Positions 15,095-46,674 of a DNA stretch of 64,000 bases are shown here, piece by piece. The position numbers and the translations under genes are program-made. The notes beneath the pieces were generated by a model, which searched no databases, had not been told where the DNA came from, and worked only from the letters and a program-made list of their open reading frames with translations. The DNA is from a virus, in the IMG/VR virus record IMGVR_UViG_3300045988_159607; one strand, given 5' to 3'. Every line of letters starts with the position of its first letter. The first letter of the stretch is position 1.

Positions 15095-17194
15095 ATGGCA
15101 GTCATATACAATTCAAAGGGCGGAATACTTACCGAACTACAATCAAAAAGGTTGTTTACAACGGTGGACGACATTATAGACCGGCTTCCTTCCACTACTG
15201 TGCGATTCTTGTTTTCTGGTGGAAGCAGAAAGGATTTGGACAAAATGCTGGACACTATAATCAACCAGACCGAGTATGCCATGAATTTTGGACGTTCGCT
15301 TGACACGGAAAAGCTGGGGTATGTGGACAATCTGTTTGCTTCAATGGATGAAAATCTAAGGATTCTGTCTTTTAATTATTTCAAGGCGACAGTCCTTTCC
15401 AATTTCAATATGGGATGGCGAAACTTGGAATGGGGGAATCTTACACAGTTATTTCCCTGGAGCAGCTATTTGTGTTCGCGAAGTAGTGGAAAGTGCGTTT
15501 CTCCTGATACTTTGATAGTTATGGCAGATGGTTTGCTAAAAAAAGTCCAGGATATAAGGGTAGGTGATAAGGTGATGGGACAAGATTTGAAATCTCGCAA
15601 TGTCTTGGAACTGCACCACGGAGAAACCTATATGTACGAAGTAAGACAGAAAGGTGGAGATAGCTATATAGTAAGCGAAGGACACATCCTTTGTCTTGCT
15701 GACGGCACTTATATTCCTGTTGAAATCGCCGAAATGAACCAAAGAAGAGCTGCCAAATATGAAGGTTATAAAGTTTCAAGGGATGGGAAATTCAAGAAAA
15801 CGGAAATTTTTATAACCTTGTTGGATGAAGGTGAGTATTATGGTTTTGCTTGTGACGGAGATCATAAGTTTTTGCTTGCTGACGGCACAGTAACGCACAA
15901 CAGTTTCGAGTGGTGTTACGCGTTCCCTTTATGGAGGTTATACTCCTATACACGTCCTATGTTGTATGGAGGGGATACGATAGACAACAAGAACCGGAAA
16001 GAAACCGCTATGATCACAAACACAATGACACTTGCAAAAGTGCATGTGAACAAGATTATAGAGGAAATATCCACCAATGATATATTGAAGGAAAAACTTG
16101 ATCCGAACGGCAAGGCTAAACTTGGAGAAACGGCAATAGAAGGTGAGAATGGTGCGATTCTTCATGTTCGTGGTAAAGATGGGTTTATTCGTGGTTTGCA
16201 CGTTGGAGCAGCAATCATAGATGATATGCCGGACGAAAGTTCTCTTTACAGCGATGAGCAAAGAGAAAAGCTAAAGGAAACATTTAGAGGGACTATTACT
16301 CCTATTGTTGAGCCTTACGGATATCTGATTGTGTCCGGTACGCCTTATTCTACTGCTCCTAACGAATTGTACAATGTCATTAAGGGGGATAAGCGTTTTT
16401 ATCTGTTCGAATATCCTATCATATTCCCAGACGGACGTCCTCTTGCTCCTGACAGGTATATGTTTGAAGATATAAAAAGGAAAAGAACAGAGCTTGGTTC
16501 TATTGTGTTTGCACGAGAATACCTTGTGATTCCTATTTCGGACAACTCAACTATTTTTCCGTATGAATATCTTAGAAGGGCAACTGCCAGCATGGATAAG
16601 GTTTCCTTTGCGGACAGCATAGAGTTTTATCCGTTCGAACTTAGAAGGGTGATTGTGGGATGCGACTTCGCTGTTTCTGGTAATATCGGTGCTGACTACA
16701 CTGTTTATTCCGTATGGGGTGTTGATTTCTCCGGTAATTACCACCTTGTGAATTATTTCAGGGCAAAAGGTATGTCTCACAATGAGCAGGTGGACAAGAT
16801 TGTTCTTTTCAATCGTTTGTTTAAGCCTGATAAGATCGTGTGCGAGGCTAACGGATTTCAAGGGATATTGTCAGCACTTGCAAGAGAAAGAGGACTTACC
16901 AATATCGAACAATTTACCACTACGGAAGGAAACAAAAAGGACTTGTACACCGGACTTCCGTCTTTGTCTGCCATGTTTGAAAGAGGACAGATCAGAACGC
17001 CTTACAAGGAAGGTGAAACAAGGGAAAAGGTGGAATTGATGTTCAGTGAGTTTTCTTCTATCACTTTTAGAAGCGATAAAGGAAAACTGGAAGCAAGTTC
17101 GGGACATGATGATTTATGCCTTTCAAGCTGGTTTGCAATAAACACCTTACGAGAAGAAGGCGAAAGTAGTGGTTTTAGTATCAATTTGGTTTAA
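15095..17194 (+). CDS. terL: terminase large subunit, interrupted by a mini-intein
   Basis: Walker A SRSSGK|...|S, Walker B GAAIIDD, and C-terminal RNase-H-like nuclease motifs (VGCDFAVSG, VCEANGFQG, GHDDLCLS). Confidence 0.8.
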   Translation: MAVIYNSKGGILTELQSKRLFTTVDDIIDRLPSTTVRFLFSGGSRKDLDKMLDTIINQTEYAMNFGRSLDTEKLGYVDNLFASMDENLRILSFNYFKATVLSNFNMGWRNLEWGNLTQLFPWSSYLCSRSSGKCVSPDTLIVMADGLLKKVQDIRVGDKVMGQDLKSRNVLELHHGETYMYEVRQKGGDSYIVSEGHILCLADGTYIPVEIAEMNQRRAAKYEGYKVSRDGKFKKTEIFITLLDEGEYYGFACDGDHKFLLADGTVTHNSFEWCYAFPLWRLYSYTRPMLYGGDTIDNKNRKETAMITNTMTLAKVHVNKIIEEISTNDILKEKLDPNGKAKLGETAIEGENGAILHVRGKDGFIRGLHVGAAIIDDMPDESSLYSDEQREKLKETFRGTITPIVEPYGYLIVSGTPYSTAPNELYNVIKGDKRFYLFEYPIIFPDGRPLAPDRYMFEDIKRKRTELGSIVFAREYLVIPISDNSTIFPYEYLRRATASMDKVSFADSIEFYPFELRRVIVGCDFAVSGNIGADYTVYSVWGVDFSGNYHLVNYFRAKGMSHNEQVDKIVLFNRLFKPDKIVCEANGFQGILSALARERGLTNIEQFTTTEGNKKDLYTGLPSLSAMFERGQIRTPYKEGETREKVELMFSEFSSITFRSDKGKLEASSGHDDLCLSSWFAINTLREEGESSGFSINLV
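15494..15901 (+). mobile_element. mini-intein (136 aa) in the TerL Walker A motif
   Basis: Starts CVSPDTLIVMADG (block A). Has SEGHILCLADG (block B) and ends EYYGFACDGDHKFLLADGTVTHN followed by +1 Ser. Removing it gives SRSSGKSFEW. Confidence 0.8.
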
Positions 17195-39362: not shown

Positions 39363-39614
39363 ATGAGTAAGATTTACAAGGAGATAGCCTTCAACTTCAC
39401 AAAAGCATTGAATAAATTGGAGCTAAGGACAAGTGCCAGAAGTTTCATCTCCATGCGTAAAGCGGAGAAGGTTATTTCCCTACTTTTTGAGGTCATATTC
39501 GACAAATTGGAAAGAGACGGAAAAGTAAACATAAGAGGATTTTGCATTATCAAGAAAATCAAATGTAGAGACGGAAAGTATTATTTTGAATTTATAGACA
39601 ACAGAAAGAAATGA
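39363..39614 (+). CDS. HU/IHF-like DNA-binding protein (putative)
   Basis: KAEKVISLLFEVIFDKLERDGKVNIRGFCIIKK fits the a..v...f..i...l..g..v.l.gFG.f pattern. Confidence 0.45.
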   Translation: MSKIYKEIAFNFTKALNKLELRTSARSFISMRKAEKVISLLFEVIFDKLERDGKVNIRGFCIIKKIKCRDGKYYFEFIDNRKK

Positions 39615-40105
39615 ATACAAACTTTGAAACAAAATTTGGAGGCGGTAAGGTGGCAACAGTAGAATGGTACACACCTCCTTATATTATTGAAGCATTGGGA
39701 AATGATTTTGATTTAGATCCTGCTGCTCCTAAAAGAGAATGGTACACTGCAAGAAAGTGTTTTACTAAAGAAGACGATGGATTAGCCCAAGATTGGAAAG
39801 GTTTTGTATTTTTAAATCCGCCCTATTCCAATCCTACGATTAAACTTTTCATGAAAAAGTTGTCTGAATATGGGAATGGTATAGCTCTTGTTTATGCAAG
39901 AGTAGGAAATTCAATGTTTCATGAATGTGTTTGGGATAAAGCTACTTCTATTTATTTTCTTAGGAAAAGAATAAGGTTTATTGATGAAACAGGAAAAGAA
40001 GGTGGATCTCCTGGCACAGATAGTTGCTTTGTGGCTTATGGAGAAAAGGGAGATGAAATTCTAAAGAATCTAAAGCTACCAGGCAAATACATAAAACTCA
40101 ACTGA
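39611..40105 (+). CDS. dam: phage-type DNA N6-adenine methyltransferase
   Basis: VEWYTPPYIIEALGNDFDLDPAA ... FLNPPYS (catalytic NPPY). Confidence 0.7.
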   Translation: MNTNFETKFGGGKVATVEWYTPPYIIEALGNDFDLDPAAPKREWYTARKCFTKEDDGLAQDWKGFVFLNPPYSNPTIKLFMKKLSEYGNGIALVYARVGNSMFHECVWDKATSIYFLRKRIRFIDETGKEGGSPGTDSCFVAYGEKGDEILKNLKLPGKYIKLN

Positions 40106-44365: not shown

Positions 44366-44684
44366 ACTGTACATCATTGTACCTCATGAGAATGGGAAAG
44401 TAACCCTTTTTTCGGCTGACAAAATAGAAGAACTTGTTCCTTTCCTTCCTTCAATGGAAGCGATAAAGACAAATGTAGAACTTCAAGTGGCAAAATGGGA
44501 AAGAGATCGTTCCTACAAGCCGCAACCGCTTACACTTAGTGTTCCTTTGGATATTTTCCTAAAAGTGAAAGCTATTACAGGTGGAAAATGGAATGAAATA
44601 CCTATCAATCAAGGGTGCAATGGTATTCCTTCGGTAATTTTAATCCCCAGCAAGGAGAAAACAGAGGAAGATGAACATAGTTGA
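44346..44684 (+). CDS. hypothetical protein
   Basis: Track ORF 44265..44684. The likely start is MKKKKTKLYIIV at 44346. Confidence 0.45.
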   Translation: MKKKKTKLYIIVPHENGKVTLFSADKIEELVPFLPSMEAIKTNVELQVAKWERDRSYKPQPLTLSVPLDIFLKVKAITGGKWNEIPINQGCNGIPSVILIPSKEKTEEDEHS

Positions 44685-45135
44685 CGGGATTGTAGGAAAT
44701 ACTTTCATTGCTATAGACAGCGAAAAGCAAGCAATGAGATGTGATCAGATTCAAGAAGAAGGAAAGCTCGCATTGACTGTTTCTTTAAAGAATGGACACA
44801 GGTTTGGAAGAAGTCTTTCAGAAGCTGTAAAATATGATTACTCCCACGTAGTGGAATGTGTTTTAAACACAGGGGACAGCTTTAGAGCCACAAGCGGACT
44901 TCTTTTAATGGATATGTGGGGAGACTGGATCACAGTTCTAAGATCGGAAGGAATACCGCTATTTTCTTATGATTTTTCCGAAGATAGTAAGAAAGCAAAA
45001 GACTTCCTTTTTATAGAAAAAGTAAACTTCCTTCCCTACCGGAAATTATTTTTAATCTTAAAACAGATGACCCCTCCCAAAACTTCGTTATTCTTCCTAA
45101 AGGAAGCAAAGAGTGTGATTATACAAAAGGGATAG
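44671..45135 (+). CDS. hypothetical protein
   Basis: 154-aa ORF. Confidence 0.45.
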   Translation: MNIVDGIVGNTFIAIDSEKQAMRCDQIQEEGKLALTVSLKNGHRFGRSLSEAVKYDYSHVVECVLNTGDSFRATSGLLLMDMWGDWITVLRSEGIPLFSYDFSEDSKKAKDFLFIEKVNFLPYRKLFLILKQMTPPKTSLFFLKEAKSVIIQKG

Positions 45136-45600: not shown

Positions 45601-46674
45601 ATGAATGTACTTAGTTTATTCGATGGAATGTCATGTGGACAAATAGCGTTAAAGGAATTGAACATTTTCATTGACACTTATTATGCTTCTGAAATAGATA
45701 GATTTGCCATTGCGCAAACACAACTCAATTTTCCCAATACAATTCAAATAGGTGACGTTAAGAAAGTCAATGTATTGGATTTGCAACCCATTGATTTATT
45801 AATAGGGGGGGTCTCCTTGTACCAATCTTTCGTTTGCAGGGACAAGAAAAGGTCTTTGTACAAAAGAAAGATTGAGATTGTATCACTTGAACAATATCTT
45901 GAACTAAAGGAACAAGGTTTTGAATTTGAAGGGCAATCCTATTTATTCTGGGAGTACATGAGAATACTTACGGAAATAAGAGAATACAACCCCAATGTAT
46001 TGTTCCTATTGGAGAATGTGGAAATGGGAAAGAAGTGGGAAACTGTGTTTAATAAAGCCATTGGGATACAAGGTATCCATATTAATTCATCTCTTGTATC
46101 TGCTCAAAGCAGAAAAAGGATTTATTGGACGAATATAGACGGCGGAAACATCCCGCAGCCTAAAGACAAAGGATTGTTTTTAAGAGACATATTGGAAGAT
46201 GAAGTAGACGAACATTTCTTTCTTTCTGAAAAGGCTCTTAAAGGGATCGAACTTCACAAGAAAAGAAACAAAGAAAAAGGGAATGGATTTGGCGCGGACA
46301 TAAGAAAACCTTCTGACAAATCCCAAACTATAAGTGTAGGTGGTAAGGGAATGTATGATTTGGTAAGTGTTCCTTCAAGAAAAGTAATCCAGTTGAACAA
46401 AACAAATGAATTTGGAAAACAACCAAGACAACAGAACAGGATATATGATCCACAAGGAACATCCCCTGCGGTTTTGACAAACATGAGTTGTGGGAGTCAT
46501 GCTATATTAGATAATTTCTGCATACGAAGACTTACTCCTATTGAATGCGCAAGATTGCAAACCATTCCTGAGTGGTACGAATGGCAATGTAGTAACACAC
46601 AACAGTACAAGATGTTGGGGAACGGCTGGACAGTAGAAGTCATAAAACATATATTCGGTTATATGATAGAATAA
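45601..46674 (+). CDS. dcm: DNA (cytosine-5) methyltransferase with catalytic motif IV out of frame
   Basis: Motif I LSLFDGMSCG, ENV (LLENV), QSRKRIYW, RRLTPIECARLQTIP, and GNGWTV are all in frame 0. The GGSPC..LSFAG motif is readable only in the +1 frame at 45805-45856. Confidence 0.8.
   Translation: MNVLSLFDGMSCGQIALKELNIFIDTYYASEIDRFAIAQTQLNFPNTIQIGDVKKVNVLDLQPIDLLIGGVSLYQSFVCRDKKRSLYKRKIEIVSLEQYLELKEQGFEFEGQSYLFWEYMRILTEIREYNPNVLFLLENVEMGKKWETVFNKAIGIQGIHINSSLVSAQSRKRIYWTNIDGGNIPQPKDKGLFLRDILEDEVDEHFFLSEKALKGIELHKKRNKEKGNGFGADIRKPSDKSQTISVGGKGMYDLVSVPSRKVIQLNKTNEFGKQPRQQNRIYDPQGTSPAVLTNMSCGSHAILDNFCIRRLTPIECARLQTIPEWYEWQCSNTQQYKMLGNGWTVEVIKHIFGYMIE

Follow-up and report, generated by a model that had tools for sequence, protein, structure and literature searches.

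How does a DNA methyltransferase gene come to be open over its whole length while the cysteine of its catalytic motif can be read only in another frame? This question is raised by a 64,000-nucleotide (nt) stretch of viral DNA, IMG/VR record IMGVR_UViG_3300045988_159607 (hereafter the window), in which an open reading frame (ORF) on the + strand, 45601..46674, runs for 357 codons with no internal stop in frame 0. We favor, with a probability of about 0.72, the reading that a run of six G (G6) in this gene is hypermutable and that the window genome would descend from a G7 allele, converted by a second lesion into a null whose frame is restored and whose product lacks the catalytic Cys.

Motif IV lies hidden outside the translated frame

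The features on which the argument turns are these:

45601..46674, + strand: predicted orphan C5-cytosine methyltransferase gene (PF00145, PDB matches, gene neighborhood)
45805..45811, + strand: G7 homopolymer, the hypermutable tract (tract alleles in relatives); the wild type has G6, two Gly codons before Ser-Pro-Cys
45806..45868, + strand: hidden motif IV, GGSPCTNLSFAGTRKGLCTKE, in the +1 frame (translation; DNMT3A and relatives align)
45811..45870, + strand: 20 out-of-register frame-0 codons, VSLYQSFVCRDKKRSLYKRK, replacing the catalytic loop, residues 71-90 (translation, alignment)
45866..45871, + strand: compensating lesion that restores frame 0, GAAAGA in the window versus GAAAACA/GAAAATA in relatives (DNA alignments)
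45873..45875, + strand: TGA that ends uncompensated G7 alleles after 91 codons (the N-terminal ORFs of L084/L086 have 91 residues)

The original prediction held that frame 0 encodes an uninterrupted protein of 357 residues with motifs I, VI, VIII, IX and X intact, and that Pro-Cys is missing from it because a near-textbook motif IV lies in the +1 frame after the G7 run. Translation bears out both statements. In the wild type, the tract and motif IV are encoded by GGG GGG TCT CCT TGT, with the tract at codons 69-70 (G6, or G7 in the window). The window has no Pro-Cys in the translated frame, which reads GGVSLYQSFVCRDKK at the aligned motif IV position and GGVSLYQSFVCRDKKRSLYKRKIEIV across the shifted stretch, leaving residues 71-90 out of register. 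GGSPC is readable in the +1 frame only, at 45806-45820, where the catalytic Cys codon TGT occupies 45818-45820, and that frame meets a stop 12 codons after the hidden motif. Relatives read GGSPC in frame, and in a protein alignment nearly all of the close ones carry GGSPCTNLSF.G.RKGLCTKENIEI in one frame. A comparison of orthologues, named beforehand as the check on which this interpretation could fall, found GGVSLYQSFVCRD in none of them, and the interpretation stands.

Scored against the Pfam family PF00145 (cutoff 22), the frame-0 product reaches 107.9 bits, split over two stretches; repair in silico, with one G taken out and one base put in ahead of ATTGAG, gives 131.4 bits in a single continuous stretch. 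A search of the PDB placed the DNMT3A/3B catalytic domains at the top (E = 6e-20) and M.HhaI next, and the repaired motif IV aligns with GGSPCNDLSIVNPARKGL of the DNMT3A catalytic domain. The gene is, judging by these matches, a phage orphan C5-cytosine DNA methyltransferase of a DNMT3-like bacterial/phage subgroup. By descent it is a member of PF00145, but no activity is expected of its frame-0 product, which is likely catalytically dead.

A two-step origin for the window allele

Loci L084 and L086 carry G7 together with the wild-type GAAAACATTGAG, and their frame closes at that TGA after 91 codons. The window gene matches L084 apart from the compensating lesion, with no other difference, and this uncompensated G7 precursor was found in two other samples. 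Taking the precursor (99.8% identical) and the wild type (99.3% identical) as references, we checked the earlier proposal that one extra G and one missing base yield a full-length protein without the nucleophilic Cys, and it held. The companion idea of two compensating homopolymer slips was correct for the G run only: the second event, a lost base combined with a substitution, is not a clean slip. Where relatives read GAAAACATT, the window reads GAAAGATT, one base having been lost (~45869-45870) and one substituted (A4->A3, C->G). The window sequence at the lesion, GAAAGATTGAG, is thus one base shorter and carries C->G 3 nt ahead of the TGA; the TGA at 45873..45875 is out of frame in the window, shifted by the deletion 3 nt upstream.

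We propose that a change from G6 to G7 would have switched the gene off first, truncating its product at the TGA after codon 91. The loss A4->A3 together with C->G, 3 nt before this TGA, would then have reopened the ORF and given a Cys-less product. The result would be an intragenic +1/-1 suppressor pair in which 20 residues, including the Pro-Cys nucleophile, are replaced. Restoring G6 in the window context gives CTKERLRLYHLNNILN and then a stop, and therefore a single slippage, whether of DNA, RNA or the ribosome, cannot restore an active enzyme. The window allele appears to be a locked-off state; most likely it is a by-product, neutral or close to neutral, of a lineage that can do without methylation.

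The window carries a further private lesion two genes upstream. It had been argued that the rest of the window is intact, and the ORFs of 4.9 kb and 4.3 kb are indeed open, but there is a private, uncompensated 1-nt deletion at ~45030-45032. Within ORF 44671..45135, positions 45025-45036 of the window are one base short (CTTCCTTCCCTACC versus CTTCCTTTCCCTACC or CTTCCTTCCGCTACC in relatives), a change found in the window only. In 14 fully readable close relatives this ORF encodes a conserved protein of 163 residues ending in ...LPEIIFNLKTDDPSQNFVILPKGSKECDYTKGIVVQSLFKE, and in the divergent L002 it encodes 161. The window version has 154 residues, the last 34 of them unrelated, with the uncompensated frameshift lying 770 nt upstream of the G tract. 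This suggests that the lineage may be accumulating lesions in the module to which both genes belong.

The G tract appears hypermutable among close relatives

Our DNA census covered 41 close relatives from more than 20 human-gut metagenomes, with IMG/VR, ENA/Logan and pattern scans of IMG/VR and Joint Genome Institute (JGI) metagenomes as sources; the pattern scans accepted any tract length. The tract alleles were distributed as follows:

Group at least 99.3% identical, G6: L003, L104
Group at least 99.3% identical, G5: L083, L085, L087, L088, L090, L091
Group at least 99.3% identical, G7: L084, L086
Group at least 99.3% identical, G7AGG: L089
Clade ~90% identical, G6: 7 loci
Clade ~90% identical, G7: L020, L102, L105
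Clade ~90% identical, G5: L019
Clade ~90% identical, G5 minus T: L018
Clade ~90% identical, G9: L021
Clade ~90% identical, G6 minus T: L002
95% identical, sister to the near-identical group, G8A: L033

G6 gives the wild-type protein and G9 adds one Gly in frame, whereas G5 and G7 shift the frame and truncate the product. With G8A the frame is kept at the tract, but the gene concerned, L033, has a 4-nt deletion elsewhere. The 12 gene copies that are at least 99.3% identical have four tract states against 12 substitution sites in 1074 nt, and two of them, L083 (G5) and L084 (G7), are zero substitutions apart. That the states G5 and G7 share identical haplotypes fits switching, but does not prove it. 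Identical tract alleles also recur across samples, cohorts and assemblers. Slipped-strand variation of the G tract, one of the explanations first offered for the locus, is therefore strongly supported between samples (G5, G6, G7, G7AGG, G8A and G9).

In the sets unselected for truncation (the IMG/VR and JGI pattern scan), 7/15 pure tracts depart from G6, compared with 0/15 tracts interrupted as GGAGGG, AGAGGG or GGTGGA (Fisher p = 0.006). All of ~55 more distant homologues have interrupted Gly codons and an intact GGSPC, and among the ~70 relatives with interrupted codons (15 close and ~55 distant) we saw no tract shift. Because pure tracts vary and interrupted tracts have never shifted, the tract is, as far as these alleles can tell, a real hypermutable repeat and a genuine mutational hotspot. 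It is a homopolymer inside a coding region, where a gain or loss of one base shifts the frame, and on between-sample evidence its length changes far more than other mutations accrue and needs an uninterrupted repeat to do so. Outside the 60-nt stretch, insertions and deletions (indels) among close relatives are rare, namely one 4-nt and one 11-nt deletion.

The protein alignment also contains other departures from the common motif. Over the shifted stretch P0002 follows the other wrong frame (GGLLAPIFHLQGQEKVFAQK) before it comes back into register, P0008/P0136 have an intact SPC followed by a short shifted patch, RKGFVQKN, and P0010 has one additional Gly. The 90% protein cluster of the window is rich in calls of 238 and 264 residues that start past the lesion and represent split genes.

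A maintained switch or an accident

Viewed at the population level, the tract could serve as a contingency locus that yields both methylating and non-methylating phage progeny. Methylated progeny would be useful against classical restriction hosts, and unmethylated progeny against methylation-dependent (Type IV) hosts. Between two clades with the G tract, the ratio of non-synonymous to synonymous substitution rates (dN/dS) is 0.07-0.10 at dS 0.36-0.42, and therefore the gene has been kept functional in the long term despite the tract. Out-of-frame (OFF) alleles are the assembled consensus in ~1/3 of the genomes of the unselected sets. The 64 kb window has a single run of at least six G or C, the G7 itself, where a first-order Markov model predicts 9 ± 3, and GGGGGG encodes 0/74 of the other Gly-Gly pairs in its long ORFs. 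Purifying selection, common OFF alleles and avoidance of G/C runs would together form the pattern expected of a contingency locus under fluctuating selection. Such a role is plausible for this tract, and we consider adaptive and accidental readings of it roughly equally likely.

Several observations weigh against the account given here. The compensated allele is documented from a single run, SRR341609, and its reality rests on the improbability of three matching consensus errors rather than on independent samples. Nine loci with 238-residue products were found by searching with the truncated product; they prove that OFF alleles exist, not how frequent they are. Private non-synonymous and synonymous substitutions number 14:17 in OFF alleles and 36:22 in in-frame (ON) alleles, and so give no sign of relaxed constraint in the former; pairwise dN/dS between OFF alleles and their nearest ON relatives is 0.3-0.5, a rise that the private substitutions do not confirm. 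Furthermore, GGGGGG is one synonymous step from GGAGGG and could be a mutational accident rather than a kept switch, and recombination could reduce the count of independent tract events.

Alternative explanations

The compensated allele could itself be an artefact, the true SRR341609 sequence being G6 with GAAAACATT, or G7 uncompensated. It comes from one early Illumina run, and a third private 1-nt indel lies on the same contig, 770 nt upstream. Look-ups for the allele in independent samples returned SRR341609 assemblies only, and the IMG/VR and JGI pattern scans returned G7 in its uncompensated form only. However, the window is 100% identical over ~20 kb each to two contigs from this human gut metagenome, one from ENA/MEGAHIT (107.7 kb) and one from Logan, so that both assemblies match the window sequence. 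The lesion combines a substitution with a deletion, an Illumina consensus is very unlikely to contain two independent indel errors within 60 nt that cancel each other's frame shift exactly, and G7 is seen in five further contigs from other assemblies (L020, L084, L086, L102, L105). Homopolymer sequencing error, which had been listed among the possible causes, is unlikely given that independent assemblies agree, though for the compensating change they all derive from SRR341609, and we think it very unlikely that the allele is artefactual. If the allele is real, an active enzyme might still be made by recoding, with the ribosome shifting frame, or the RNA polymerase slipping, first at the G run and then at the A-rich run. 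Homopolymers can promote slippage, and the motif IV in the +1 frame is perfectly preserved, but this preservation is explained by age, as there are zero substitutions relative to the G7 precursor. Wild-type relatives encode the enzyme in one frame, and the shifted arrangement is conserved in no other genome. Two successive shifts would be needed; translation that shifts once ends at a stop 12 codons beyond the motif, and a G6 transcript also hits a stop. An active enzyme thus needs two reversions, and therefore recoding explanations fail: ribosomal frameshifting, also among the original suggestions, is rejected, and we find any form of recoding hardly credible.

It may instead be that the frame-restored Cys-less protein is selected, either as a non-catalytic DNA or AdoMet (S-adenosylmethionine) binder or as a means of keeping translation running against polarity downstream. 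Three independent compensated alleles fall within ~60 nt (the window; L002/P0002, with GGLLAPIFHLQGQEKVFAQK; and L092/P0136, with the patch RKGFVQKN), and in all three the second indel precedes the first out-of-frame stop. That order, however, holds by definition for any open compensated allele. The window and L002 are single strains, drawn from searches that favor full-length proteins, and neither is a diversified lineage; the private changes of L002 are 6 non-synonymous versus 1 synonymous. The L092/P0136 patch retains Ser-Pro-Cys and occurs in several distinct sequences, in keeping with ordinary selection on the active enzyme rather than on a dead one. OFF alleles that lack compensation far outnumber the compensated ones and form the consensus of many samples, and therefore premature termination is tolerated. 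The earlier suggestion of a deliberately inactivated, DNA-binding enzyme found no support, with no Cys-less lineage that persists or diversifies. Selection for the Cys-less protein is in our view unlikely, and the open frame is most likely a by-product; quite unlikely, too, is the stronger combination in which the tract would be a maintained bet-hedging switch of C5 methylation and the Cys-less alleles (window, L002) selected locked-off forms with a non-catalytic role. The hotspot may also have no adaptive role at all. Here a chance synonymous change from GGA to GGG would have made G6, the shifted variants would be short-lived dead ends or would drift where the methyltransferase is dispensable, and the window allele would be a pseudogene that is still open. 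GGGGGG is limited to this clade, and a single step separates it from the GGAGGG found in sister lineages, and the family has other inactivating lesions: the 4-nt and 11-nt deletions, a nonsense codon in L092, the internal deletions of P0006/7/9/10 and the A/G-run frameshift of P0061. The window strain, moreover, has its private frameshift two genes upstream. Set against this are strong purifying selection (dN/dS 0.07-0.10) over a dS of ~0.4 with the tract present, an OFF consensus in ~1/3 of unselected genomes, which is too many for simple mutation-selection balance, and the avoidance of long G/C runs elsewhere (1 versus ~9 expected). We regard a hotspot without adaptive role as possible, at somewhat less than even odds.

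Relation to known systems

With a hypermutable G6 and a frame-restored Cys-less window allele as the preferred reading, the locus would be a new natural case of a repeat-driven on/off locus in a phage DNA-modification gene, and the window an unusual frame-restored null. Pairs of + and - frameshift suppressors in T4 rIIB are said to have been reported by Crick, Barnett, Brenner and Watts-Tobin in 1961. There, as in the window, one base gained (+1) and another lost close by (-1) bring the frame back, with a short missense stretch in between. The rIIB missense lies in a tolerant region and function is regained, whereas in the window the catalytic loop is replaced and the frame is regained without function.

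Homopolymer contingency loci have been described in T2/T4, where an A-run in the DNA-modification gene agt of T2 switches glucosylation and trades sensitivity to TgvAB for sensitivity to McrA/BC, both Type IV (Gomez, Barrick & Waters, bioRxiv 10.1101/2025.10.21.683753). T2 agt resembles the present locus in being a homopolymer with +/-1 alleles in a phage DNA-modification gene, and in T2 high-frequency base gain or loss switches the modification off. Unlike the present case, it is an A run in a glucosyltransferase, with reversibility and selectability shown experimentally; ours is a run of G within the codons for the catalytic motif of a C5 methyltransferase from an uncultured gut phage, known from between-metagenome variation alone. 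The same preprint mentions, for Bordetella phage BPP-1, a methylase gene whose poly-G tract was reportedly never studied further (cited in bioRxiv 10.1101/2025.10.21.683753), and poly-G tracts in receptor-binding proteins of Campylobacter Fletchervirus (Sorensen et al. 2021, Cell Rep 35:109214, as cited there). As summarized in that source, these too are poly-G repeats in phage coding regions that yield frameshift variants, and the BPP-1 gene is also a DNA methylase. By the same summary, Fletchervirus differs in having tracts of 7-11 G in host-recognition genes; the present tract is shorter (G6 in the wild type) and coincides exactly with the Gly-Gly codons of motif IV. In bacterial phasevarions (Type III mod, Type I hsd; PMC5909438, PMC7383803), a change in repeat length likewise toggles the frame of a DNA methyltransferase. 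Those enzymes, however, are cellular, mostly N6-adenine restriction-modification enzymes that regulate host gene expression, while the present gene encodes a phage orphan C5 enzyme whose role is likely protection of phage DNA.

Phage contingency loci have been proposed only recently, from laboratory coliphages, and the present tract, visible in more than 20 metagenomes of the human gut, would be a natural example. The repeat coincides with the catalytic motif in a DNA-modification gene, a type of gene in which on/off switching should matter against restriction and anti-modification defenses. There is also a consequence for annotation, which would call the window gene an intact methyltransferase although its predicted product is almost certainly unable to methylate DNA; in many relatives the gene would come out as two fragments.

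Protein family and genomic setting

Checks of frame 0 against the PF00145 family found motifs I (FxGxG), VI, VIII (QxRxR), IX and X (GNG) all present:

45619..45639, + strand: motif I FDGMSCG (AdoMet binding), intact (alignment with relatives, frame-0 translation)
46012..46020, + strand: motif VI ENV, intact (frame-0 translation)
46105..46119, + strand: motif VIII QSRKR, intact (frame-0 translation)
46525..46569, + strand: motif IX RRLTPIECARLQTIP, intact (frame-0 translation)
46618..46635, + strand: motif X GNGWTV, intact (frame-0 translation)

An AlphaFold2 model of the frame-0 protein has a mean predicted local distance difference test (pLDDT) score of 52, from an alignment of just 17 sequences, and is uninformative. 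The methyltransferase is surrounded by a replication/DNA-metabolism module with ligase, phage Dam, SNF2 helicase, RNase H and UvrD helicase, and no restriction gene was found beside it among the neighboring genes of the module. The Dam-type methyltransferase (PF05869, 164 residues) lies at 39611-40105, 5.5 kb upstream of the C5 gene, and the phage therefore codes for both adenine and cytosine methyltransferases.

The source is an uncultured tailed phage of ~105 kb, with a host that is probably a member of the Bacteroidales. By megablast, the region has no match among GenBank phages. At the large terminase (15095-17194), identity is 35% with the cultured B. thetaiotaomicron phages DAC16/SJC03 and 84% with a faecal phage contig that lacks annotation. 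The phage is not crAss-like, an affiliation that genome size and habitat had at first suggested. A look at the literature for methyltransferase frameshifts in crAss-like phages found nothing specific.

Variation of other kinds is seen in the same gene family. In the close relatives P0006/P0007 (336 residues) and P0009/P0010 (308-309 residues), the variable region that separates motifs VIII and IX has lost 21-49 residues in frame. The frame of P0061 is shifted within an A/G-rich run near KEKGNGFG, and the target-recognition region (~46270-46500 in the window) is likewise unstable. In Bacteroides phage F4 (L108, MT806185.1 5405-6873), and also in Bacuni_F1 and F2, a homologue with 55% identity is annotated as two coding sequences of 246 and 66 residues. 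The gap between the two in these cultured B. uniformis phages (F4/Bacuni_F1/F2) is ~530 nt and lies in the target-recognition region, a disruption of another kind in the same gene family. At the 3' end of the window gene, an A8 run at 46666-46673 begins inside the stop codon of the methyltransferase (GAATAAAAAAAACAG); relatives have A6 or A7 there, which makes it another length-variable homopolymer, this one intergenic.

Elsewhere in the window, an ORF of 410 residues at 20356-21588 matches PHROG 506, annotated as transposase (E = 1e-46), and may be a mobile-element gene within the phage genome. The ORFs 22-1347 and 1163-1816, which may owe their arrangement to a spurious GTG start or to another frameshift, lie on the same strand in different frames and overlap by 185 nt.

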